DNA of 8,931 nucleotides, from positions 1 to 8,931 of the IMG/VR virus record IMGVR_UViG_2695420699_000009; one strand, 5' to 3'. Position numbers and translations under genes: made by a program. Below the pieces are notes generated by a model, which ran no database searches, had not been told where the DNA came from, and saw only the letters and a list, made by a program, of their open reading frames with translations. Numbering within the stretch: position 1 is the first letter of the stretch; every line of letters starts with the position of its first letter. Origin of the DNA: a virus (taxonomy: Duplodnaviria; Heunggongvirae; Uroviricota; Caudoviricetes). Below are positions 1 through 8,931 of the stretch, piece after piece.

Positions 1-127
1 AGAAGCCACTGGAGCACCTCAAAAACACCATCATACACTAAATCAGTAAGTTGGCAGCATCACCGATAGCCTCAAGCACCCGCAGCAATTCTACTTAACT
101 CTCGCTTTACCGCAAACCGTTTTTACC

Positions 128-149
128 CGATATGGGAATTCCCATATCG
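128..149. repeat. Perfect 22-bp palindrome CGATATGGGAATTCCCATATCG (11-bp arms, centred on GAATTC)
   Basis: Read directly: the reverse complement of the first 11 nt equals the last 11 nt. Sits 8 nt downstream of the 158..262 small ORF stop. No U-tract follows on either strand, so it is not a canonical intrinsic terminator. Confidence 0.6.
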
Positions 150-157
150 TAATGAAT

Positions 158-262
158 TCAGTTCCCTAGTCGATCCATCAAAAACACAACCAGGCAGTAA
201 ACGCCCACAACAGCAACAACAGCCAGCGCACCTTCCATTGCCAGTGATATATCATCCGACAT
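158..262 (-). CDS. Candidate small hydrophobic peptide, 34 aa (MSDDISLAMEGALAVVAVVGVYCLVVFLMDRLGN)
   Basis: Below the ORF-track length cutoff; found by hand. ATG at 262 preceded by AAGGAGG with ~4-nt spacing; TGA stop at 158-160; one transmembrane-like hydrophobic stretch. No homology evidence. Confidence 0.3.
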   Translation of the reverse strand: MSDDISLAMEGALAVVAVVGVYCLVVFLMDRLGN

Positions 263-297
263 ATTCCCTCCTTTGGTGTTAATCCCGGCGAACGTTT

Positions 298-381
298 TTA
301 CCCCCACCGACAAATAACATATACTAAAAAAGCGATAGCCATAGCAACGCCTGTAATTGCAAATGCTTCAGGCCAGTTCAT
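298..381 (-). CDS. Candidate small hydrophobic peptide, 27 aa (MNWPEAFAITGVAMAIAFLVYVICRWG)
   Basis: ATG at 381..379 overlaps the TGA stop (380..378) of the upstream 300-aa gene in an ATGA arrangement, suggesting translational coupling; the upstream codons GGAGGTG act as SD; TAA stop at 298-300. Hydrophobic core. Confidence 0.3.
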   Translation of the reverse strand: MNWPEAFAITGVAMAIAFLVYVICRWG

Positions 382-1280
382 TGGCGCACCTCCTGCGGCG
401 GTTCTGGTAGAGGCATCCAGTGTGATGGTATCCACGACGCACCAGGTATTATCCACCCATCATTAGCGTCAGGATGCCCCGGGATGTAAGTCGCCCATTT
501 CATTCGCCAGTCACCTTTCCTGCCAAAATCCCTGGCAACAAGAACGGCTGTTTTGGTATCCGGCATTCGCTCACTACAGCTTATCCAACTATCCGGAGTT
601 ACCGGATAGTTGCCCGATAGTGCATTCTGCTCCAGTGATGCTTTTACAAACCACGCTGCCTGAACTATAACGCCATGAATCCAGCGCAAATCAGCATCGC
701 GATCTTTCTTTTTCATCTTTTCGCCACTTAAGGCCTTGCTTATGTGGCTGCGTACCAGGTCTTCATGTAATTCCTTCGCCTCCTCAATGGTGAAACCACC
801 AGGCAGAAGAGCCGGAGTTACCGGAGAGCTGGTTGACGCTTCCGGGATTTCCCGAAAATTATTGGTTGACGAATTCTTGCTTTCCCGAAAGTTTCCGGAC
901 TGAAGCATGGCGGTGCGGCAGGCGTTCCATATTTCGGCAGCAATATCGCGCTCGCTATCGGTTAATTTGTACGTGGAAACATAGCCAGAGAGCATTTCTA
1001 CGTTTTCCGGAGTTGCTTCTTCCGGCACTACCGGCGCTGGCGGGGCGATGCGTCCAAGCAACTTATTTACCTCTTTCGCCATCGCGTCATATTTATCTAA
1101 ATGGCGATTAGCTTCTAAGCAGACTCGGCGCATCTGATCTGAGTTAACTCGTTTAACTGGATCTGCTTCCAGCGATGCCAGCGCAATCCGTGCCAGTTCC
1201 ATTTGTTCACCACGGGTAAGCCCGTTTTCAAGCGGATTTTTAATGAACAATTCAATACGTTCTTTGGTAATAGTGGTCAT
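378..1280 (-). CDS. Phage protein, 300 aa, with a Trp/Pro-rich C-terminal region resembling the DUF551 family
   Basis: Long ORF; ATG at 1280 preceded by AAGGAG at 6-nt spacing. C-terminus (WISCSERMPD...WIIPGASWIPSHWMPLPEPP) recalled as DUF551-like; not searched. Confidence 0.7.
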   Translation of the reverse strand: MTTITKERIELFIKNPLENGLTRGEQMELARIALASLEADPVKRVNSDQMRRVCLEANRHLDKYDAMAKEVNKLLGRIAPPAPVVPEEATPENVEMLSGYVSTYKLTDSERDIAAEIWNACRTAMLQSGNFRESKNSSTNNFREIPEASTSSPVTPALLPGGFTIEEAKELHEDLVRSHISKALSGEKMKKKDRDADLRWIHGVIVQAAWFVKASLEQNALSGNYPVTPDSWISCSERMPDTKTAVLVARDFGRKGDWRMKWATYIPGHPDANDGWIIPGASWIPSHWMPLPEPPQEVRQ

Positions 1281-1290
1281 GTGTTACTCC

Positions 1291-1554
1291 TTAACCCGCA
1301 GTGCTTTCAACTGATGAGGGGAACAAAATCTTTTCATCAAACCCTGCATTCATATCATGAACAGCAACACACCAATCCATCGACGAACGATTATCAAGAG
1401 CCTCCATGATTTCATCCATGCGGCGTAGGTCATACAGGTAAATGCTTTTATCGCCAATGGTGTAAAAGCCAATTTTTTTCGGTGATGGACAGCGATCAAG
1501 AACTTCCTGTAATTCGTTCAACCATGCCCGTTCTTTTTTTGTCAAAGTTGCCAT
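1291..1554 (-). CDS. Hypothetical phage protein, 87 aa (MATLTKKERAWLNELQEVL...)
   Basis: ATG at 1554 preceded by AAGGAAA; the ORF-track N-terminal extension to 1644 lacks an SD. TAA stop at 1291-1293, 10 nt before the next gene start. Confidence 0.6.
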   Translation of the reverse strand: MATLTKKERAWLNELQEVLDRCPSPKKIGFYTIGDKSIYLYDLRRMDEIMEALDNRSSMDWCVAVHDMNAGFDEKILFPSSVESTAG

Positions 1555-1555
1555 A

Positions 1556-1693
1556 TCAGTTTTCCTTATACGGATTAATTTTATTGTGCAGTGTGTTGAA
1601 TGACGCCCATACCACGTCGTTATACAATTCAATAACTGGCTCAATTATTTTTCCGATTATCCAGACTAGGATTAACGGGGATATCGGTATCAT
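1556..1693 (-). CDS. Possible small membrane protein, 45 aa (MIPISPLILVWIIGKIIEPVIELYNDVVWASFNTLHNKINPYKEN)
   Basis: Hand-found ORF in the 250-bp gap between two genes. Strongly hydrophobic N-terminus; TGA stop lies immediately upstream of the 1554 ATG and its last codons form that gene's SD. No SD of its own (in-frame GTG/TTG alternatives just upstream). Weak call. Confidence 0.2.
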   Translation of the reverse strand: MIPISPLILVWIIGKIIEPVIELYNDVVWASFNTLHNKINPYKEN

Positions 1694-1779
1694 CAACACG
1701 ATAAACAGAATGAGAAACAGAAATTCTGTTGTTCTACTCTTTCGCGGATATTTTTTCTAAATAATGTGACCATTCATTA

Positions 1780-1795
1780 CCGCCCTTTCGGGCGG
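1780..1795 (-). terminator. GC-rich hairpin CCGCCC-TTTC-GGGCGG downstream of the 70-aa gene
   Basis: Perfect 6-bp GC stem with a 4-nt loop, about 10 nt after the TAA stop at 1806-1808. No U-run follows on the minus-strand RNA, so at most a weak terminator or stabilising hairpin. Confidence 0.3.
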
Positions 1796-1805
1796 CCTCC
1801 TGACA

Positions 1806-2018
1806 TTAATCGTTGTAATAACTCATAGCTTCATTTGCAGCATCAACTGGATCAACCTCCCTCCAGCAATAATTTGAATCGGCTCCTTCAGGCGTCCACG
1901 GTTCTAATTCATTTTTTGCCGCATTCTCATCGCCAGTAATTTTAAAAATCTGCTCAGAGAATTTTCTTGCCCACTCGTTATATTTTTCCGCATTAATGGC
2001 TTTCTGTGTATTTAACAT
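1806..2018 (-). CDS. Hypothetical small acidic phage protein, 70 aa
   Basis: ATG at 2018 preceded by GGAGGT at ~7-nt spacing; sits in the co-directional operon. Confidence 0.6.
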   Translation of the reverse strand: MLNTQKAINAEKYNEWARKFSEQIFKITGDENAAKNELEPWTPEGADSNYCWREVDPVDAANEAMSYYND

Positions 2019-2068
2019 AAATATACCTCCAGTTAAGGATTAGATTTTATTTACAGCTCTAAATTTAT

Positions 2069-2425
2069 TTATTCAGTTCTGGATTTTGTCGCCCTGCGTA
2101 TCCGCGCTTTCGCGTTACGCTCAATCTGAATTAACTTTTCTATATTTTTCCGCCTTTCCTGTTCCTCCTGGCGCAATAGCCTTACATCATCTGCCAGTCT
2201 GGTTTCTCTTTTCGCCACAGAGAGCATCCAGTCAAACGGCTCCACAACTGCACCGCAGATTTTACAGCGGACCTGACGCTCTTTTTCGTCAACCCGAACA
2301 GAGGCGTGATGGCAATATGGTCTTTCCGATGGCTCATAAAGAAAATTAACCTGATTACGAGGGTCATCCTCTTTTACCGGAAATAAAACGATATTGCTTA
2401 ACTCATCCTCTGGTTTTATTTCCAT
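2069..2425 (-). CDS. Phage protein with a putative zinc-finger (CHH...CKIC) and a basic coiled C-terminal tail, 118 aa
   Basis: ATG at 2425 preceded by AAAGGAGAGGAGC. An alternative GTG start at 2482 (GTGA overlap with the upstream stop, also with an AGGAG) would add 19 aa. Confidence 0.6.
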   Translation of the reverse strand: MEIKPEDELSNIVLFPVKEDDPRNQVNFLYEPSERPYCHHASVRVDEKERQVRCKICGAVVEPFDWMLSVAKRETRLADDVRLLRQEEQERRKNIEKLIQIERNAKARIRRATKSRTE

Positions 2426-2482
2426 GCTCCTCTCCTTTGATGCGAATGCCAGCGGTAATTGAAGCCTGATAGCTAATTTCAC

Positions 2483-2878
2483 TCACAGTACCGTCTCCTG
2501 AAAATTACCCTGATAGAAAGCCAGTACACGCTGCATAGCTTCACTCTTCCGGCACTCGCCACAGATTATGTTCTGTTGTCTGTCGTAGCGGCGTATTTCT
2601 CCGTCTGGTAACTTTCGAATCAATGTCTGGTCGGTTGCTTTCTCCGCTGCCTTACGCCATACGCGATACACCTGTTCTGATGTAAAAACACCGTATTTAC
2701 CGGGCATGTATAAATCGCCACAAGCCAGTACATCCACAAGGCAACGTCTGACTGAATGCCAGCCTGCTCCCGTCGCTCTCTCCAGTTGTGATATCGTCAT
2801 GCGTTCATTTTTGCGTACCAGCCCGATAATTCGGGCCTTCAGTTCTTCACGCTGTTCGTGTGTAAAAGGTTTCGCCAT
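2483..2878 (-). CDS. Hypothetical phage protein, 131 aa, possible winged-helix N-terminus
   Basis: ATG at 2878 preceded by GGAGG at 6-nt spacing; TGA stop at 2483-2485; tight spacing with neighbours. Confidence 0.7.
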   Translation of the reverse strand: MAKPFTHEQREELKARIIGLVRKNERMTISQLERATGAGWHSVRRCLVDVLACGDLYMPGKYGVFTSEQVYRVWRKAAEKATDQTLIRKLPDGEIRRYDRQQNIICGECRKSEAMQRVLAFYQGNFQETVL

Positions 2879-2893
2879 AAGCGCCTCCGGCTA

Positions 2894-3664
2894 TCACTTT
2901 TCCGATACAACACGGCGGGAAGAATCAGTAATCTGTCGAACAATATCCCGGTGCTTGTTCAGCTCCCGCAGCGCGGCGCAGACTCGCTCCCACTTCTGAA
3001 CATCACTTTTCGCCCTGCGCAGCGCCAGGTTTGCCCTGCGCAGGGACGGAAAAATCAGCTCATCTGCTTGCGTTTCGGTAAACGATGGCAACGGCTGCAC
3101 AATGTCCGCCACAGTTTCTGTTTTAATTTCTTCCTGTGTTGCGGCTTCCCGGACTGGTAACGAAGCACCTGCTGGCTGAGGAAAGGCCTTACCATCACTT
3201 TCCGTTACCAGCGCGGCTTTCGGCTCTGCTGGTAAATTATCGCCCGGCATGCAGTAACGAAATTTACCGTTCTGATTAACGCGTGCCAGCCGCCCCGTTG
3301 CGGTTACCACCGCCAGCGTGGAAGCAACCTTGCGAGTACTGACACCGAACTTACCCGCCAGTTCCTCACACGTTTTAGCCCCATCCTGACCGATAAACTC
3401 AATCATCATGTCTGCGGTAACTTTTTGTTCGACCTCCCCGGTCAGCATATCCTGTGCTTCAGATTTTACTGGCCGCTCTTCGGTTACCCGGGATTCACCT
3501 TCGCCAGCCAGAAACCAGGTGTGACCAGTTTTATCAACGACGCCATTTCTTTTGAGTTCCCACAGCTCGTTGACAGCCTCTTCACGACTGATTCCAAGGC
3601 GAGCTGCCACCACATGTGAAGAGGCTTTTTTCAGTGCTTTCAGTGCGTCAGATACGGTTTCCAT
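2894..3664 (-). CDS. Phage protein, 256 aa, with two tandem winged-helix-like repeats (DUF1627-like by recollection)
   Basis: ATG at 3664 preceded by GGAGG at 8-nt spacing. Two similar segments (VAARLGISREEAVNELWELKRNG and ELAGKFGVSTRKVASTLAVVTATG). Lies directly downstream of the helicase-loader gene, as is usual in lambdoid prophages. Confidence 0.7.
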   Translation of the reverse strand: METVSDALKALKKASSHVVAARLGISREEAVNELWELKRNGVVDKTGHTWFLAGEGESRVTEERPVKSEAQDMLTGEVEQKVTADMMIEFIGQDGAKTCEELAGKFGVSTRKVASTLAVVTATGRLARVNQNGKFRYCMPGDNLPAEPKAALVTESDGKAFPQPAGASLPVREAATQEEIKTETVADIVQPLPSFTETQADELIFPSLRRANLALRRAKSDVQKWERVCAALRELNKHRDIVRQITDSSRRVVSEK

Positions 3665-3685
3665 TAAAATTTCCTCCGGACAAAA

Positions 3686-4432
3686 TTACTTCACAACCCT
3701 CATATTGCTGACATTTGGACGCCAGCTATCCCAGTTAAACGTCACCCATCGACCACCGTTCATGGTCATGCGATCCATAATCCGCTCGCCGAGCAATGTT
3801 TTCATGGCCTCATAGTTCAGGTTTGTCAGCATCCCCACGCTGCGCATCGACGCTGTCCGGCGATCAACAATCTGGTGCAGTACCACCTGCTCGTTTTTCG
3901 TCTCGCGCTGAATGCCAATTTCATCAAGAACCAGCAGATCCACTTCGCACAGTTCCCGCAAAAATTTTTCGCCTGACTGCCCATCGTCATAGCTGGCGTG
4001 CAGGGCACTCATAACATCAGCCACGGTAACCACAATCACTGTCTGACCGTCTTTCAGCAGGCGATTCCCGATAGCTGCCGCTAAGTGGTTCTTCCCGGTA
4101 CCAGGTTTTCCGCTGAACGCAAAATTTGTACACCCGGTCATCAGTTCATCAGCGATGGATTTCGCCTGACTCAACGCGTATCGCTGCCCTTCGTTCTGCA
4201 CCTGGTAATTCGAAAACGAGCATTTGCTGTGCAGAGGCTGGATGCCCGAACGATTCAGGATTTTTTCCACCCGCAACTGGTGATTCTGGCGGTTAATCTC
4301 CTCGCTGCGTTTTCGTCCTTCAGCAAGTTGCCATTCCCGCCACTCCTCCACCGTCCGGTACGGTGGAACCGACGCCTGTGGTGCAAGTCTGCGAATACGT
4401 TCAAGAACCCCGGCTGCCGCAATGTTTTTCAT
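3686..4432 (-). CDS. DnaC/IstB-family AAA+ helicase loader (lambda P functional analogue; Rac YdaV-like), 248 aa
   Basis: Walker A (GKPGTGKNHLAAAIG) and Walker B (DLLVLDEIG) read in the translation. ATG at 4432 lies 6 nt after the upstream gene stop, with a GGGGGTGA SD. Confidence 0.9.
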   Translation of the reverse strand: MKNIAAAGVLERIRRLAPQASVPPYRTVEEWREWQLAEGRKRSEEINRQNHQLRVEKILNRSGIQPLHSKCSFSNYQVQNEGQRYALSQAKSIADELMTGCTNFAFSGKPGTGKNHLAAAIGNRLLKDGQTVIVVTVADVMSALHASYDDGQSGEKFLRELCEVDLLVLDEIGIQRETKNEQVVLHQIVDRRTASMRSVGMLTNLNYEAMKTLLGERIMDRMTMNGGRWVTFNWDSWRPNVSNMRVVK

Positions 4433-4438
4433 GCCACA

Positions 4439-5521
4439 TCACCCCCTGAATCCCGGCGGTATTTCAGTGTCCGGTTCAGAAATGTGATTCACGCAACGCT
4501 GGTTGTTCGTGCCGCTTACCGGGAGCAACCAGGGGTTTTCAAAATTCCGGTCCGGCCCAAAAAACGTCTTCGCTCGCTGAACAAATTCCGTTCCCGCTTT
4601 CCCGGTCGCCGCCAGGTATCTCGCGTAACGCCTCACACCATCCAGCATGGTCTCTGGTGGCACCCCCTCGCGCAATCTGGCCTTCCAGGCACTGAATGCG
4701 GATTTCTTCGGGTTTGCTCCGGCACGCAACGGGAACTCCCGCCAGACCTGTTCGAACACATCCGGATAATCCACTCGTCCCACAGACTGCCCGGTGTTTT
4801 CCGGGACTACCCGATCGGCTTCCCGCTGAATGGCGGAATCGGCTTCGGGCTGCTGCAGTTGGTGTGATTGCTCCGGCCTTGCGGTCATCACCTGCTGCAC
4901 AGCGCCCGAATCGGCTTTCAGCGCATACGCTGAATCGGCTTCCGGTGTCGTGCCTGCTGGCTGACCAGGATTGACGGTCTGAACATCCCCTGCCTGGTTC
5001 GTGGCGTTTTTTACGCCATGGACCATAGTGTTTTGATCTTCTTGATCTGTATCTTTATCTGTATCTTTATCTGTATCTTTATCTGTCGTGACTCGTCGTG
5101 ACATGTGCGTGACATTTCGTGACGCGCCGTGACAATCGCCATTTTGTTCCCGCTTTCTTTCCCTCTCTCGCTGCGCCCTCTTGCGCTCTGCAGGAGATTT
5201 TGCGGTTTGCGAAATATTGCCGTTGTCCTCTTTAAGCACCTGGCGTTTTTCCCATCCAGTGATTAAATCACCATCAAGTACCCGCCCCTGCATCGTCTGC
5301 AAAATTGAATCAATTACCTCTTCTGTCACGTCGAGCGCACTTGCCAAATCTTCTGTCGTGACATCAATGTGACCTCGCGTGACATTTCGTGACGCGCTCA
5401 CCAGGAGGTGGATATACACTGCCATCACTGTTGCAATTGGCTGCCCTGACACCCTGGCAATTGTTCGCCACTTAGGGTCATTTGGCATGTCATGCCATAA
5501 TCTGAGCCAGGCGTTAGCCAT
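4439..5521 (-). CDS. Replication initiator / replisome organiser (lambda O-like; Rac YdaU-like), ~360 aa
   Basis: Sits immediately upstream of the DnaC-like gene. Start taken as the ATG at 5521 (SD GAGGTGA); the ORF track begins at a GTG at 5527. The coding sequence contains the iteron-like repeats and a (TDKD)n linker. Confidence 0.8.
   Translation of the reverse strand: MANAWLRLWHDMPNDPKWRTIARVSGQPIATVMAVYIHLLVSASRNVTRGHIDVTTEDLASALDVTEEVIDSILQTMQGRVLDGDLITGWEKRQVLKEDNGNISQTAKSPAERKRAQRERERKREQNGDCHGASRNVTHMSRRVTTDKDTDKDTDKDTDQEDQNTMVHGVKNATNQAGDVQTVNPGQPAGTTPEADSAYALKADSGAVQQVMTARPEQSHQLQQPEADSAIQREADRVVPENTGQSVGRVDYPDVFEQVWREFPLRAGANPKKSAFSAWKARLREGVPPETMLDGVRRYARYLAATGKAGTEFVQRAKTFFGPDRNFENPWLLPVSGTNNQRCVNHISEPDTEIPPGFRG
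5045..5080. repeat. Tandem 12-bp repeat (ATCTGTATCTTT x3, plus a partial copy) encoding a TDKDTDKDTDKD linker
   Basis: Read directly at 5045-5086; corresponds to ...TTDKDTDKDTDKDTDQ... in the minus-strand translation. Confidence 0.9.
5086..5397. other. Putative phage origin of replication: two clusters of phased GTGAC iteron-like repeats inside the initiator gene
   Basis: Cluster 1 (5086-5133) has five GTGAC copies at ~10-13 bp spacing; cluster 2 (5356-5393) has four. An exact 20-bp repeat CGTGACATTTCGTGACGCGC occurs at 5108-5127 and 5378-5397. Lambda ori lies inside O in the same way. Confidence 0.55.
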
Positions 5522-5592
5522 ACTCACCTCTTCTGATACCGAATCTTTTTACTCACGAGTTGCCGGAAGCGATTCGATATGGCTATTATCAC

Positions 5593-6018
5593 TCAATGCA
5601 CTGCCACAGCATTTCCTGCCGGGCCACCACGGTTCATCTGATTGAAACCGGCGATTGCCACCGCGACAAAATCATCAGCGTCTCTCACCAGTCGCTCCCG
5701 CGTCTCCACCAGCTCCCGAAAATAAGCTGAACTGTGGCTGCGCATTCTGGCCACCAGCAAAGGTGGCATTGCCTTTTCGATCGCTGGTAACAACGCCAGA
5801 ATTTTTTCAACTGCATCAGGGGTGTCTTTCTCTATCCAGCGGAAAATTTTCTGGGTATTGCGAGCCAGGGCTTCCGGATGGCTGTCGTCGTACAGTTCAG
5901 GAAACGTCATACCCAACTCAAAATAAGCCTGGGTTATTCCAGCTGCCGGAACTTTTTCGCCATCAGGACGCGCCCAGGCATTCATCGCCATGCGGATGTG
6001 TTCATGCTTGATTTTCAT
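5593..6018 (-). CDS. CII-like regulator (Rac YdaT-like), 141 aa
   Basis: Immediately follows the Cro-like gene on the same strand; ATG at 6018 preceded by AGGAGC at 7-nt spacing and overlapping the upstream gene's 3' end by 17 nt. Family assignment by position and recollection. Confidence 0.7.
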   Translation of the reverse strand: MKIKHEHIRMAMNAWARPDGEKVPAAGITQAYFELGMTFPELYDDSHPEALARNTQKIFRWIEKDTPDAVEKILALLPAIEKAMPPLLVARMRSHSSAYFRELVETRERLVRDADDFVAVAIAGFNQMNRGGPAGNAVAVH

Positions 6019-6283
6019 GAATCAAGCTCCTAGAAAGTGGTTGTGTTAACGTTTTGGTATCTTCCAGCTCGGGCCAAATATTCATCCAATCAAAAGGCCT
6101 TAGTTGCTGACGTGTAACTTCACCATTACTGGCTCGCTCAATAAGGACACATAACGATGCCCCTAACACTTGACCTTTACTCAATGCCTTTCTTAGATAA
6201 CCGATGCTGGTACCACACTCGCATGCAAACATACGCTGTTCATCTGACGAAAGAGAATTGAGAAATATTCTTAATTCTTCCAT
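6002..6283 (-). CDS. Cro-like HTH regulator (Rac YdaS-like), 93 aa
   Basis: First gene of the minus-strand operon, divergent from the repressor; ATG at 6283 preceded by AAGGAG at 5-nt spacing; HTH-like segment around TSIGYLRKALSKGQ. Confidence 0.75.
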   Translation of the reverse strand: MEELRIFLNSLSSDEQRMFACECGTSIGYLRKALSKGQVLGASLCVLIERASNGEVTRQQLRPFDWMNIWPELEDTKTLTQPLSRSLIHENQA

Positions 6284-6308
6284 AGCTACTCCTTAGTAAA
6301 CACAGCAA

Positions 6309-6390
6309 AGAATACCCATAGGTAAACAAAAGTCAATACCCATAGGTTGTTTACCTTGCGGTAATCGCATCTATTATTTACCTATGGATA
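6309..6390. promoter_or_regulatory. OR-like divergent promoter region with three copies of a 12-bp palindromic operator (consensus TACCyATrGGTA)
   Basis: Operators at 6313-6324 (TACCCATAGGTA), 6337-6348 (TACCCATAGGTT) and 6379-6390 (TACCTATGGATA, overlapping the repressor ATG). Candidate minus-strand promoter: -35 TTGACT (6336..6331), -10 TATTCT (6314..6309). Candidate plus-strand promoter: -10 TATTAT (6372-6377), placing the start at or near the ATG. Confidence 0.6.
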
Positions 6391-6803
6391 AATATGAATT
6401 TAGACGACAGCAACTCATCAAAATTCGTGATGAGAAATGCGATGGTAAAGCGGTTAACGTGGCCAGAAAGATCGGGCGCGAGCCTTCTTATGTATCAAGA
6501 ATGTTGTACCCAGAGGGGAAAAAGGGAAAAAAACGGATCGCTGATGATATGGTGGAGATTATCGAAGAGTCCTTTGGGTTACCCCGGGGATGGATGGATG
6601 GTATCGTTTCATCATCAACGAACACAGCCTCCAGTTATGAAACAAGGGTTCTAACGCCACGACAACGTATTTTTTTAGATCTCTTAGACGAACTGCCAGA
6701 AAGTGAAGCGGATAAATTATTAAAAACTCTTGAAGAGAAAAAACAGTATTACAATATGATCTACGAAGAAATCCGTAAAAAGAAAGCACAAAACGCATCA
6801 TAG
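6384..6803 (+). CDS. CI-type prophage repressor, 139 aa, XRE-like HTH with a DicA/RacR-like C-terminal region
   Basis: Divergent from the Cro-like gene. HTH-like segment AVNVARKIGREPSYVSRML. The C-terminal part (LTPRQRIFLDLLDELPESEADKLL...) resembles the DicA C-terminus as I recall it. No SD upstream, consistent with a leaderless transcript. Confidence 0.8.
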   Translation: MDKYEFRRQQLIKIRDEKCDGKAVNVARKIGREPSYVSRMLYPEGKKGKKRIADDMVEIIEESFGLPRGWMDGIVSSSTNTASSYETRVLTPRQRIFLDLLDELPESEADKLLKTLEEKKQYYNMIYEEIRKKKAQNAS

Positions 6804-6845
6804 CTCACCAAACAACTAGTCACCAGTTAAGACACCGCAAAAAGT

Positions 6846-6886
6846 TACCCATGGGTATTTACTTTTTAAATACCTATGGGTATCCT
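6846..6886. promoter_or_regulatory. OL-like operator pair and candidate rightward early promoter
   Basis: Same motif as in OR: TACCCATGGGTA (6846-6857, perfect palindrome) and TACCTATGGGTA (6871-6882), 25 bp centre to centre. Candidate -35 TTTACT (6858-6863) and -10 TATCCT (6881-6886) with a 17-bp spacer, firing on the plus strand. Confidence 0.5.
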
Positions 6887-7207
6887 TCTTTTCATGCCAA
6901 CCCACCCCGCCCCACAGAATGCAGGGCAATACTTTGAGTTACCAGGCAGTGGTCAGGGGTTAAGTAGCCAGCCCGAGGCGTAAGAACATGACGGCAGGGT
7001 TCAACTTTAATAACTATGCAGCAGGTTTTTGTTCCGCTACCCCGGCGTTAAGGGGAAACAGAGGATTTCTCAGTGGGCGAAGTCAAACATCAGAATGGAA
7101 GGCATCCAGGGATCAGCAAAGAAACAGCGATGGCGCTTTATATTGATATCAGCGCCATTGCCGGACAGGTAAGAATTATCAGAGCGGTAACTAAGCGGTA
7201 TGCGCCT

Positions 7208-7408
7208 TTACTTCAGAAAGTCTCTGGTGAGTGCACCGAAGATATTGTCAACGATTTCGTCATCAAACTGCGAGGACTCATCTTCAGTTACAAGGTGACC
7301 ACAATTTTTGCAGATGGCTCCCGCGAAACTGTCAGAGCCATGCGGTTTAAAGGATGTGTCAAAGACTTCGCCGCCACATTCTGGGCAAGAAAACTTGATT
7401 GTATTCAT
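7208..7408 (-). CDS. Small Cys4 zinc-ribbon protein with an acidic C-terminal tail, 66 aa
   Basis: Two CxxCG knuckles (CPECGG and CKNCGH) 20 residues apart. ATG at 7408 preceded by GAGAGGAAA at ~9-nt spacing; the ORF-track start at 7414 is a TTG. Oriented opposite to the surrounding plus-strand early operon. A plus-strand ORF (7073-7429) fully overlaps it; the zinc-ribbon motif decided the call. Confidence 0.55.
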   Translation of the reverse strand: MNTIKFSCPECGGEVFDTSFKPHGSDSFAGAICKNCGHLVTEDESSQFDDEIVDNIFGALTRDFLK

Positions 7409-7500
7409 AACCAATTTCCTCTCGAGTAACAGCCGCCTCAGAGGATACCACCTCGCCTGACGTGGTTAAAAGCAGGCAACGCTAACCACAAGGAGCCGAC

Positions 7501-7719
7501 ATGCAGAAACGAGAACCCGTCATCATCGCGCCAGACTATACCGATGATGAACTTTATGAGTGGATGCACCAGAAAATTAAGGCAGCGCAGGACCTGAAAT
7601 GGGCCAATGAAGCCAGGGCTAAGCAAGCTGAAAATCTGTCCGCTCTGGAGCAGGATATCACCAATCTGGAAAAAGCAGCGGCATTAAGCATTGCCAGAAT
7701 GATTACATACCCGCGTTAA
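7501..7719 (+). CDS. Hypothetical early-operon protein, 72 aa (same position and size as Qin YdfC, but not verified)
   Basis: ATG at 7501 preceded by AAGGAGCC at 5-6 nt spacing; TAA stop at 7717-7719; same strand as the dicF-dicB module. Confidence 0.6.
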   Translation: MQKREPVIIAPDYTDDELYEWMHQKIKAAQDLKWANEARAKQAENLSALEQDITNLEKAAALSIARMITYPR

Positions 7720-8059
7720 TAGCTAACCAACGAAGCTAAGGTTGGTAATTAAGGAGTTCTCCACGGGTGAGGTGGAGTGCGTGCGCCGGACACGGGTGAG
7801 CATCCGGCACTGACAGTTTACTGAAAGGATATTTCCCTGAAAAGTCAGGGCATAACGCGAAAGCGCACGGCGAGGTAGCTGGTTCATAGATAGCCTGTCG
7901 TTAAATTTTCGTCGACCGTGCGCTTCCGGTTGTGGCACTCCGCGAAATGGCGCGGCGGTAAGTATGGCGGGGTTATTCCTTCCCCGTTGAGGACACCGGG
8001 TTGTCAGGTTGACCATACGCTTAAGTGACAACCCCGCTGCAACGCCCTCTGTTATCAAT

Positions 8060-8117
8060 TTTCTGGTGACGTTTGGCGGTATCAGTTTTACTCCGTGGCT
8101 GCTCTGCCGCCCTTTTT
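8060..8117 (+). ncRNA. dicF: DicF-like small RNA (ftsZ-targeting sRNA of Qin-type prophages)
   Basis: TTTCTGGTGACGTTTGGCGGTATCAGTTTTACTCCGTGGCTGCTCTGCCGCCCTTTTT matches my recollection of E. coli DicF almost base for base. It ends in a GC-rich stem plus T-run and lies ~170 nt upstream of the dicB-like gene, as in the Qin dicB operon. Ends are approximate, since DicF is made by processing. Confidence 0.7.
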
Positions 8118-8286
8118 AAAGTGAATTTTGTGATGCGGTGAATGCGGCTAAGCGCACGCGGAACAGTTAAAACCAAAAACAGTGTTATGGGTGGATTCTC
8201 TGTATCCGGCGTTAATTGTTAACTGGTTAACGTCACCTGGAGGCACCAGGCACTGCATCACAAAATTCATTGTTGAGGACGCGATA

Positions 8287-8475
8287 ATGGAAAAGTTATC
8301 ACGTAATGCCAGCACGTCTGAACTTCGTTTCGAAATTGGCGTTATCACTGGAGACAAAACATTTATTGAAGACGCCATTAAGCAGAGAAAACTCGAGCAG
8401 GACCTGTTAAATGAAGTATGCATTCCTTCAATGCTGGCTCGTCTGGACCTGCTGCAAAAAGGATATAAACAATGA
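8287..8475 (+). CDS. dicB: DicB-like cell-division inhibitor, 62 aa
   Basis: Same length as E. coli DicB and shares recalled motifs (FEIGV, EDAI, KRK, LLN, SMLARL, C-terminal KG..Q). ATG at 8287 preceded by GAGGA at ~8-nt spacing; the ORF-track extension to 8182 has no support. Confidence 0.8.
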   Translation: MEKLSRNASTSELRFEIGVITGDKTFIEDAIKQRKLEQDLLNEVCIPSMLARLDLLQKGYKQ

Positions 8476-8663
8476 ATACAACATTTGCACTCGTTCTGAC
8501 AGTTTATCTTGTTTCCGGCGAATCTCTTGAGCTGGTGACTGGCTTATACGGTTCAATGAAAGAATGCATGGCTGCAGCAGCAGAACAAAAAATTCCCGGT
8601 AACTGTTATCCGGTAGATAAAACTACCCACACTAATAATAACGAAATACCGGCAGGACTTTAA
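8472..8663 (+). CDS. Small protein with a hydrophobic N-terminus, 63 aa, translationally coupled to dicB (YdfD-like by position and size)
   Basis: ATG at 8472-8474 overlaps the dicB-like TGA stop in an ATGA arrangement. N-terminal hydrophobic segment MNTTFALVLTVYLVSG. Matches the position and length of Qin YdfD; sequence identity not verified. Confidence 0.55.
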   Translation: MNTTFALVLTVYLVSGESLELVTGLYGSMKECMAAAAEQKIPGNCYPVDKTTHTNNNEIPAGL

Positions 8664-8756
8664 AACAGCACCGTAATTAATATCCGGTTTCATTTTTATA
8701 TGCCAGCAATGGCAGGGATTTGTTCACCCTTAAATCTGTAATGAGGTTAAAACAAA

Positions 8757-8931
8757 ATGAGTAAAGTCTTTATTTGCGCCGCCATTCCGGACGAACAGGC
8801 AATAAAAGAAGAGGGCGCAGTTGCTGTAGCCACTGCCATTGAAGCTGGCGACGAACGCCGTGCTCGAGCAAAATTTCACTGGCAATTCCTGGAACATTAT
8901 CCGGCTGCTCAGGACTGCGCTTATAAATTTA
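8757..8931 (+). CDS. Hypothetical protein, 5' part only (runs off the window; YdfE-like by position)
   Basis: ATG at 8757 with GAGG ~10 nt upstream; open to the end of the window (MSKVFICAAIPDEQAIKEEGAVAVATAIEAGDERRARAKFHWQFLEHYPAAQDCAYKF...). Confidence 0.55.
   Translation, partial: MSKVFICAAIPDEQAIKEEGAVAVATAIEAGDERRARAKFHWQFLEHYPAAQDCAYKF

Follow-up and report, generated by a model that had tools for sequence, protein, structure and literature searches.

Two micro-ORFs upstream of an IS1-broken hok/sok locus in an Escherichia coli prophage are probably genes for small single-pass membrane proteins

Do two adjacent and very short open reading frames (ORFs), each with a hydrophobic core, encode real peptides, and if so what might such peptides do? 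The question is raised by an 8,931-nt stretch of DNA from a virus of the Caudoviricetes (IMG/VR record IMGVR_UViG_2695420699_000009, positions 1 to 8,931), here called the window, in which the original prediction had pointed to two tandem micro-ORFs of 27 and 34 amino acids (aa). We call these ORF1 and ORF2. All coordinates are window positions unless another sequence is named, and around the two ORFs the minus strand is the coding one. The analysis described below indicates that ORF1 and ORF2 are probably real genes, each translated separately into a single-pass inner-membrane micro-protein, i.e. a small accessory protein. As part of the same reading, the element that carries them is probably a Rac/lambdoid-type E. 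coli prophage, with the two ORFs at the distal end of an accessory run between the replication genes and Q.

Both ORFs are present on the minus strand as predicted (Table 1), and encode the peptides MNWPEAFAITGVAMAIAFLVYVICRWG and MSDDISLAMEGALAVVAVVGVYCLVVFLMDRLGN, each followed by a stop codon. The hydrophobic core comprises 17–18 residues in each peptide, i.e. it is of membrane-spanning length, and is flanked by very short polar tails. The segment of ORF1 (residues 7–24) has a Kyte-Doolittle value of 2.48 and that of ORF2 (residues 13–29) a value of 2.94; the C-terminal tails are just three residues long in ORF1 (RWG) and five in ORF2 (DRLGN). The ATG of ORF1 and the TGA of the preceding gene overlap as ATGA. 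That gene had been described as DUF551-like, and its 300-aa product does end in a DUF551 domain (residues 231–296; Pfam PF04448, E = 6.4e-19). The AAGGAGG Shine-Dalgarno (SD) sequence proposed for ORF2 is there too, and ORF1 has an AGGAGG of its own that had been passed over. The observation is confirmed in every detail, and the coding interpretation of both ORFs is well supported by the evidence that follows.

ORF1 is a member of a family of 27-aa peptides with the motif M-x-W-P-E/D-A-F...I-C-R-W-G. A tblastn search with the peptide found 99 phage records, 97 of them with at least 80% query coverage; these are chiefly lambdoid and Shiga toxin (Stx)-converting phages, together with P1-like phages. 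In a sample of 12 of these loci taken for closer inspection ORF1 is intact at 27 aa in nine, and is shorter in two (24 aa in SJ46 and 22 aa in a Klebsiella phage for which the match is statistically insignificant); the twelfth (phiSTEC1589-Stx1c) has a TAG at codon 3. The start overlaps the preceding stop as ATGA in 11 of the 12, with TAATG at the Klebsiella locus, and the genes that precede it encode varied proteins of 86 to 295 aa. A degenerate DNA pattern, in which codons 1–6 and 25–28 were fixed and 55 bases left unconstrained, matched more than 120 contigs in IMG/VR. All 132 matches, which represent 57 distinct DNA sequences, are free of stops in the 55 unconstrained bases. Over one genome per species (185,579 species) true matches to the same pattern were confined to Escherichia and Shigella, plus two tiny contigs; a further eight matches arose by chance, six of which contain stops and none of which is hydrophobic. 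The tiny contigs, assigned to Xanthomonas pisi (431 nt) and Acinetobacter idrijaensis (369 nt) (L249 and L256), carry ORF1 sequences of the E. coli phage type, one peptide being equal to that of phage 933W and the other to that of the P1-like phages. They are probably assembly contaminants.

ORF1 is annotated in none of the 12 sampled phage records, nor is it among the annotations of the Prokaryotic Genome Annotation Pipeline (PGAP) for the E. coli prophage loci examined. In a few GenBank entries it does appear as a hypothetical protein, with the exact peptide in ETJ68712.1 and AOM45384.1 and with an extra N-terminus in WP_250221393.1 (such extensions are 13–18 residues long). Common gene callers have a length floor of roughly 90 nt. 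At 84 nt including its stop codon ORF1 lies under this, which would explain why it is missing. Taken together, the sequence comparisons indicate that ORF1 is a real, widespread and mostly unannotated family of phage micro-proteins.

The ratio of synonymous to non-synonymous changes in relatives, which the original prediction had proposed as a check, turned out in favour of both peptides, with enrichment of synonymous changes in the proposed frames only. These tests are simple counts of variant alleles. For ORF1, 33 of 79 variants are synonymous, where 27% would be expected (p = 0.0035), while the other two frames show no enrichment (p = 0.54 and 0.8). The variation falls mostly at third positions, the entropy at the three codon positions being 0.56, 0.32 and 0.99, and the ratio of non-synonymous to synonymous polymorphism (pN/pS) is 0.42 in frame compared with 0.65 and 1.6 in the other frames. 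Residues M1, W3, P4, A6, G11, A15, A17, C24, R25, W26 and G27 are invariant or nearly so. For ORF2 there are 14 synonymous and 13 non-synonymous (mostly conservative) variants against an expectation of 26% synonymous (p = 0.003). Again no enrichment is found in the other frames, where the numbers are 4:21 and 5:21.

The ribosome-binding site of ORF1 is conserved along with the peptide. An SD sequence of the GGAGG type lies 7–11 nt 5′ of ORF1 in all context classes, behind different upstream genes. The last four to five codons of these otherwise unrelated genes converge on …QEVNQ and a stop, encoding the GGAGG, so that the SD is kept behind at least five unrelated C-termini. The common tail therefore shows that ORF1 recombines between phages together with its own ribosome-binding site, ORF and AGGAGG moving as a unit. 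The stop-start overlap and the location of the SD inside the upstream gene persist across contexts, as in a coupled cistron, and this is the arrangement that would be expected for termination-reinitiation coupling. What lies on the 3′ side of ORF1 is more variable. In about 38 of the IMG/VR matches it is followed by a DUF4222 gene and then xis and int, in about 40 directly by a hok promoter, in 17 by ORF2 and in seven by P1-like genes; terminator-like hairpins also occur. Where a DUF4222 or P1-like gene comes next, the gap before it is short, at only 3–5 nt.

ORF2 is already known as an annotated gene. PGAP calls it hypothetical protein WP_001278454.1 in the closely related locus L001, with variants WP_001278459/60 and WP_101973867 in other relatives. 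It was absent from a collection of 50,697 phage records searched by blastn and tblastn. A word-indexed search of 5.8 billion proteins gave 29 clusters, all from E. coli, and an exhaustive HMMER search of 1.84 billion representatives gave seven matches, all of them close relatives. Distant homologues were consequently rejected, the protein and DNA searches having returned only E. coli relatives that are at least 76% identical, and by this evidence ORF2 is a lineage-restricted orphan of E. coli prophages. Positions 140–400, which include both micro-ORFs, are covered to at least 80% in 675 E. coli records and in 673 of 5426 complete genomes. The genomes are mostly those of strains of the enterohaemorrhagic E. 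coli (EHEC) type with several copies each, and O157 genomes have four to five copies. Within IMG/VR ORF2 is intact in nearly all of 124 loci, with 17 distinct DNA sequences, and its SD is conserved as AAGGAGG or AGGGAGG in every ORF1-ORF2 locus listed.

ORF2 has also been published as a translated gene. XECs145 is a small gene of E. coli O157:H7 Sakai located at 1550761–1550922 (Hücker et al. 2017, PMC5597208), and its peptide …KGGNMSDDISLAMEGALAVIAVVGVYCLVVFLMDRLGN is that of ORF2 with the change V16I and 20 extra N-terminal codons. In lysogeny broth (LB) it has a transcriptome value of 79.1 reads per kilobase per million (RPKM) and a translatome RPKM of 346.1, giving a ribosomal coverage value (RCV) of 4.35 with a coverage of 0.99; the corresponding values in brain-heart infusion (BHI) are 121.3, 150.1, 1.14 and 0.84 (PMC5597208). 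Translation collapses under cold and osmotic stress, where the RCV is 0.01, and the authors predicted an inner-membrane protein with one transmembrane helix (PMC5597208). Uninduced Sakai cultures thus transcribe their copy of ORF2 and translate it efficiently (PMC5597208). The authors placed the start at a non-ATG codon for which no SD was found, with a BPROM promoter 173 bp upstream of it (PMC5597208); the position of this promoter falls inside the DUF551 gene. The conserved ATG preceded by AAGGAGG is clearly a better start for ORF2 than the published one, which is 20 codons upstream.

Frame conservation in relatives, the other check that had been proposed, has a mixed outcome that is for the most part positive. 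The frames are kept in nearly all relatives, while a minority of ORF1 alleles is broken. Among the 124 ORF2-carrying loci in IMG/VR about 86 have an intact ORF1 of 27 aa and 25 have an in-frame deletion of 6 nt; W26 is changed to TGA in eight, and a few others are frameshifted. The allele MIWPEAFAITGVAIAIDFLVYVICRWG, which places aspartate in the middle of the predicted helix (A17D), is found in 36 of the 124. Codon 3 is changed from TGG to TAG in the Stx phages POCJ13 (a Shigella phage, L007), Shigella phage 75/02 Stx and phiSTEC1589-Stx1c (L015), and in one E. coli prophage (L006); this could be a recurrent or an inherited loss. Note that the ORF1 DNA of these phages differs otherwise, yet the codons 3′ of the TAG still read the conserved peptide. 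In one prophage, which also has several annotated pseudogenes, ORF1 is disrupted by a 14-nt deletion. The disruptive and odd alleles indicate that constraint on ORF1 is relaxed in resident prophages, and from the codon-3 TAG in sequenced Stx phages ORF1 appears to be dispensable for the phage.

Table 1. Features of the micro-ORF locus and its surroundings, in window coordinates
Feature	Position	Strand	Remarks
DUF551 gene	378..1280	-	300 aa; stop overlaps ORF1 start; last codons (…PQEVRQ and stop) encode the ORF1 SD
ORF1 Shine-Dalgarno AGGAGG	389..394	-	7 nt 5′ of ATG, inside last DUF551 codons
ORF1	298..381	-	27 aa; predicted transmembrane helix residues 7-24; ATGA overlap with DUF551 stop
G5 run TGGGGGTAA	298..306		at ORF1 stop
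Proximal 11-nt direct repeat CGTTTTTACCC	293..303		overlaps ORF1 stop codon and G5 run
ORF2 Shine-Dalgarno AAGGAGG	267..273	-	4 nt before ATG
ORF2	158..262	-	34 aa; acidic N-terminal tail, then predicted transmembrane helix residues 13-29
Palindrome CGATATGGGAATTCCCATATCG	128..149		perfect, 22 nt; RNA hairpin
Distal 11-nt direct repeat CGTTTTTACCC	118..128		pairs with 293-303, 175-nt period
hok/sok remnant	65..116	-	promoter-like elements and first bases of hok mRNA leader
IS1 end	1..64	-	inverted repeat and first 3 codons of insA

Where, then, do the two genes lie? Prophages of E. coli O55:H7 CB9615 and of further strains match positions 65–700 with 100% identity, and in them PGAP labels the upstream gene as a DUF551 domain-containing protein. 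The order in CB9615 is cro, YdaT-like, replication genes, DUF977, DUF551, the 34-aa ORF2, hokD, DUF968, RusA and antitermination protein Q. By comparison with these relatives the micro-ORFs lie among the accessory genes of the early rightward operon, a short way upstream of hok/sok.

In phage 933W and the approximately 40 IMG/VR loci in which ORF1 is joined straight to the hok promoter there is a single copy of the 11-nt repeat and no ORF2. The window has an additional segment that contains ORF2 and the palindrome and is bracketed by the two copies of the repeat. This suggests an insertion of the ORF2 segment, or else its deletion through the repeat. ORF2 with its hairpin thus forms a cassette of extra DNA that is present or absent in otherwise collinear phages, as is characteristic of a moron. 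The gap between the ORF1 stop and the ORF2 ATG, at only 35 nt, leaves no room for a promoter belonging to ORF2 alone. The palindrome starts 8 nt past the ORF2 stop and has an EcoRI site at its centre. As RNA it forms a 9-bp hairpin with an AAUU loop; the fold of 81 nt has a free energy of −22.4 kcal/mol (z = −3.2), and no U-tract accompanies the hairpin in it. The palindrome is kept together with ORF2 in relatives, and a C to T variant retains a G·U pair only on the ORF2-sense RNA. It may be a 3′-end stabilizer, a barrier before the hok promoter or a protein site.

Beyond this cassette the hok/sok locus of the window is broken by the insertion sequence IS1, which has parted the promoter-like section from the toxin locus. 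IS1 copies in at least 5000 plasmids match positions 1–64 with 100% identity (under annotations as IS1-family transposase), and this end sequence is multicopy in 5172 of 5426 E. coli genomes. Positions 65–116 align upstream of hokW in 933W and of hokD in L001, L003 and L004. They contain the elements TTTGCG (111–116) and TAGAAT (88–93) on the minus strand, separated by a 17-nt spacer; this putative hok promoter was assigned by inspection of the sequence, and the promoter scan did not flag it. The Rfam sok family (RF01794) matches L001 at 5842–6017 on the minus strand with a score of 121.7 bits. Position 6001 of L001 corresponds to window position 65, and the IS1 junction (64/65) therefore falls 17 nt inside the region covered by the model; no Rfam match is left in the window. 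The relatives that are identical over 65–700 have an intact hokD about 250 nt further on, and the junction between IS1 and hok is present in no complete E. coli genome of the collection. Chromosomal hok loci of E. coli K-12 are often inactivated by insertion sequences too, as Pedersen and Gerdes are said to have described in 1999.

Several other explanations of the two ORFs have to be weighed. They are very short, they match no database family and ORF1 is outside the PGAP annotations examined, all of which might be expected if both were open merely by chance, in a non-coding spacer ahead of hok. The conservation, the frame-specific substitution, the SD sequences and the ribosome profiling (Ribo-seq) have already largely refuted this, and we consider it extremely unlikely. 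It is quite unlikely that ORF1 is a translated spacer whose peptide is incidental, reinitiation at the ATGA serving to block Rho termination or RNase attack, or to insulate the hok promoter or xis. Such a function would agree with the invariable stop-start overlap and the conserved SD, with the location of ORF1 as very often the last cistron before a module boundary (i.e. a hok promoter, a terminator or a convergent gene), and with the toleration of knock-out alleles in sequenced Stx phages. However, a pure spacer would not keep a hydrophobic helix. ORF1 is conserved as amino acids, with its synonymous enrichment in that frame only, and has a length fixed at 27 codons in which W3, P4, A6, G11, C24, R25, W26 and G27 are invariant or nearly so despite divergence at third positions.

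The roles suggested by the original prediction included membrane-depolarising toxins and holin-like modulators, and one or both peptides might on that basis damage the membrane, as type I-like toxins or as holin-like modulators, for prophage maintenance, abortive infection or the timing of lysis. Ibs, TisB, DinQ and the Ldr-type toxins are small, with a single hydrophobic helix and short polar tails, and ORF1 and ORF2 resemble them in all three respects. The genes adjoin a bona fide hok/sok locus, and the recurrent knock-out or attenuating alleles of ORF1 (codon-3 TAG, W26 to stop and A17D) could reflect selection against a harmful product. There are in addition two sigma-70-like sites on the plus strand at 238–265 and 297–325, antisense to ORF2 and ORF1 respectively. 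But these are not clearly above the level in shuffled sequence (five found compared with 1.9 ± 1.5, over the whole 1.4-kb region), and by inspection they overlap positions that vary among relatives. Neither an antitoxin nor any other RNA family of Rfam was found at 65–400 (E ≤ 1), and the architecture of a type I system with its cognate antisense RNA was accordingly rejected. Both ORFs have strong and exposed SD sequences, neither being sequestered, and O157 genomes carry four to five copies. Moreover translation is not kept off in growing cells, since the Sakai ORF2 is efficiently translated in normal growth in LB, and this is hard to square with a potent depolarising toxin. For a holin there is no lysis cassette, the neighbours in L001 being DUF551 upstream and hok, DUF968, RusA and Q downstream, and the tails of 3–5 residues are unlike the charged hydrophilic C-terminal domain of holins. 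The toxin and holin options are therefore disfavoured, and we regard a role of this kind as unlikely.

Could ORF1 and ORF2 be parts of one product? ORF2 is in the −1 frame of ORF1, and this frame is open from ORF1 codon 4 to the ORF2 ATG. The 3′ end of ORF1 reads TGG GGG TAA, so a 74-aa protein with two helices might be made by −1 slippage of tRNA-Gly on G GGG at the stop (UGG GGG UAA to GUA AAA…, with the junction peptide …CRWGVKTFAGINTK…), or through a DNA slippage switch between G5 and G6. Alleles with a G6 run do encode a 74-aa protein of ORF1, linker and ORF2 (P0008, P0009). They are found in contigs of three independent metagenome samples and in two sequence backgrounds (L260, 1501–1725; L261, 1053–1277; L262, 556–780). 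The 74-aa fusion was modelled from its single sequence as a helical hairpin (helices of residues 3–34 and 41–72) with a predicted local distance difference test (pLDDT) score of 71, but the model shows only that two helices are plausible. We note that all three G6 contigs and the related locus L005 adjoin IbrB-like and 3′-phosphoadenosine 5′-phosphosulfate (PAPS)-reductase genes instead of hok, and that a 14-nt deletion in L005 also gives a fused ORF, of 69 aa. On the other side, G6 is present in none of the 124 ORF1-ORF2 loci in IMG/VR, ORF2 has its own strong SD and ATG, and the linker is without a coding signal; a signal there was sought and set aside, as the changes (three synonymous, two non-synonymous and one 1-nt deletion) are too few to support it. 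Programmed frameshifting is for these reasons unlikely. Nor is there a canonical X XXY YYZ heptamer or an obvious downstream stimulatory structure, and in most members of the family the glycine codon ahead of the ORF1 stop is GGA. Overall we think a single product very improbable, while the rare fusions are a weak hint that the two peptides work together.

A more speculative and doubtful proposal is that ORF1 and ORF2 each supply one half of a single membrane device placed before hok/sok. The common G5 allele would give separate helices, whereas the fused 74-aa hairpin would come from G6 alleles or, at a low level, from −1 slippage on G GGG UAA; the device might modulate membrane integrity or the action of Hok, for phage exclusion or maintenance. 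In a more modest version of this same doubtful proposal, the ORF1 family would be an early-operon micro-protein, widespread but overlooked, of the lambdoid, Stx and P1-like phages, and its conserved WPEAF and CRWG ends would direct it to a specific inner-membrane protein of the host.

We therefore return to two separately translated membrane micro-proteins as the probable reading. Synthesis of ORF1 would take place each time the early operon is read, by ribosomes that either reinitiate or are recruited by the SD. In the membrane both peptides would lie N-out/C-in as single helices, so that their one basic residue (R25 in ORF1 and R31 in ORF2) faces the cytoplasm. Other membrane proteins of 25–50 aa suggest by analogy that the two may work by attaching to a larger membrane protein, or to one another, and not by killing the cell. 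ORF2 might be a lysogen-expressed accessory ('moron'-like) gene, for which exclusion or host modulation seems the most plausible role, and ORF1 an early-operon accessory that would be dispensable for phage viability.

A number of points weigh against this reading. The topology is deduced from a single arginine. The disruptive or odd alleles of ORF1 described above form a sizeable minority. The Sakai Ribo-seq study took only ORFs of at least 30 aa, which left out the 27-aa ORF1, and a literature search found no Ribo-seq support for ORF1 in an EDL933 study or a preprint on uropathogenic E. coli (UPEC), full-text matches to the peptide string being irrelevant. As for ORF2, several near-identical prophage copies may share the Sakai signal, part of which could stem from cells induced spontaneously. 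The promoter scan of the 1.4-kb region found none inside the ORF2 cassette, which is thus not a textbook self-contained moron. Lastly, neither peptide has a homologue of known function in Pfam, PHROG, NCBIfam, PADLOC or the PDB, with nothing at curated thresholds.

Some candidate relationships were pursued and dropped in these searches. Eight of 25 ORF1 members have weak matches to the PTR2/POT transporters (PF00854, TIGR00924), the best reaching 17.9 bits (E = 0.0015) where the cutoff is 27. The PDB sequences should include those of POT transporters, and a profile of 25 ORF1 sequences matched no PDB sequence at E ≤ 10; mimicry of a transporter helix was thus discarded and the sub-threshold matches were treated as compositional. 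Membership of a defence system was rejected, since PADLOC gave nothing meaningful. Apparent DUF551-ORF1 fusion proteins, i.e. the 121-aa members of one cluster, lack ORF1 and are a clustering artefact.

At present the outcome is a tidy correction of annotation with no new mechanism, solid but ordinary. ORF1 is a concrete example of a conserved phage gene family that standard annotation has mostly missed, and it occurs in Stx-converting phages, which are of medical relevance, and in numerous EHEC prophages, often with several copies per genome. ORF2 illustrates how a lineage-restricted orphan gene, though placed as a little cassette among conserved modules, can be translated in lysogens. Should one or other of the peptides prove to modulate a membrane protein of the host or to exclude other phages, the few phage micro-proteins that have been characterized would gain a further member.

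How do the two peptides compare with known systems? The nearest case is that of XECs145 or WP_001278454.1, which is ORF2 itself, the Sakai peptide differing by V16I and the protein being listed as hypothetical elsewhere. The difference lies in the start, the published one being 20 codons too far upstream, at a non-ATG codon without an SD. ORF1 and ORF2 are small and hydrophobic like the type I toxins (Hok, Ibs, TisB, DinQ and Ldr), and hok/sok lies just downstream in intact relatives; unlike them, they lack an antisense RNA and a sequestered SD, they are not similar to Hok, and ORF2 is freely translated. The gp15 protein of HK97 is a small membrane protein expressed by the lysogen from a moron, and acts in superinfection exclusion. 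ORF2 resembles morons of this type in being a small single-pass protein, present or absent as a cassette and expressed in uninduced cells, whereas it has no sequence relation to them (Pfam, PHROG), no promoter in the cassette and no U-tract terminator. KdpF, MgtR, PmrR, AcrZ and MgtS are bacterial membrane regulators of 25–50 aa. ORF1 and ORF2 are not homologous to these and are carried by phages, not being core genes of the chromosome. They are nonetheless of similar size, each with one helix, very short tails and conserved interfacial residues, and this likeness suggests that they too may act by binding a larger membrane protein.

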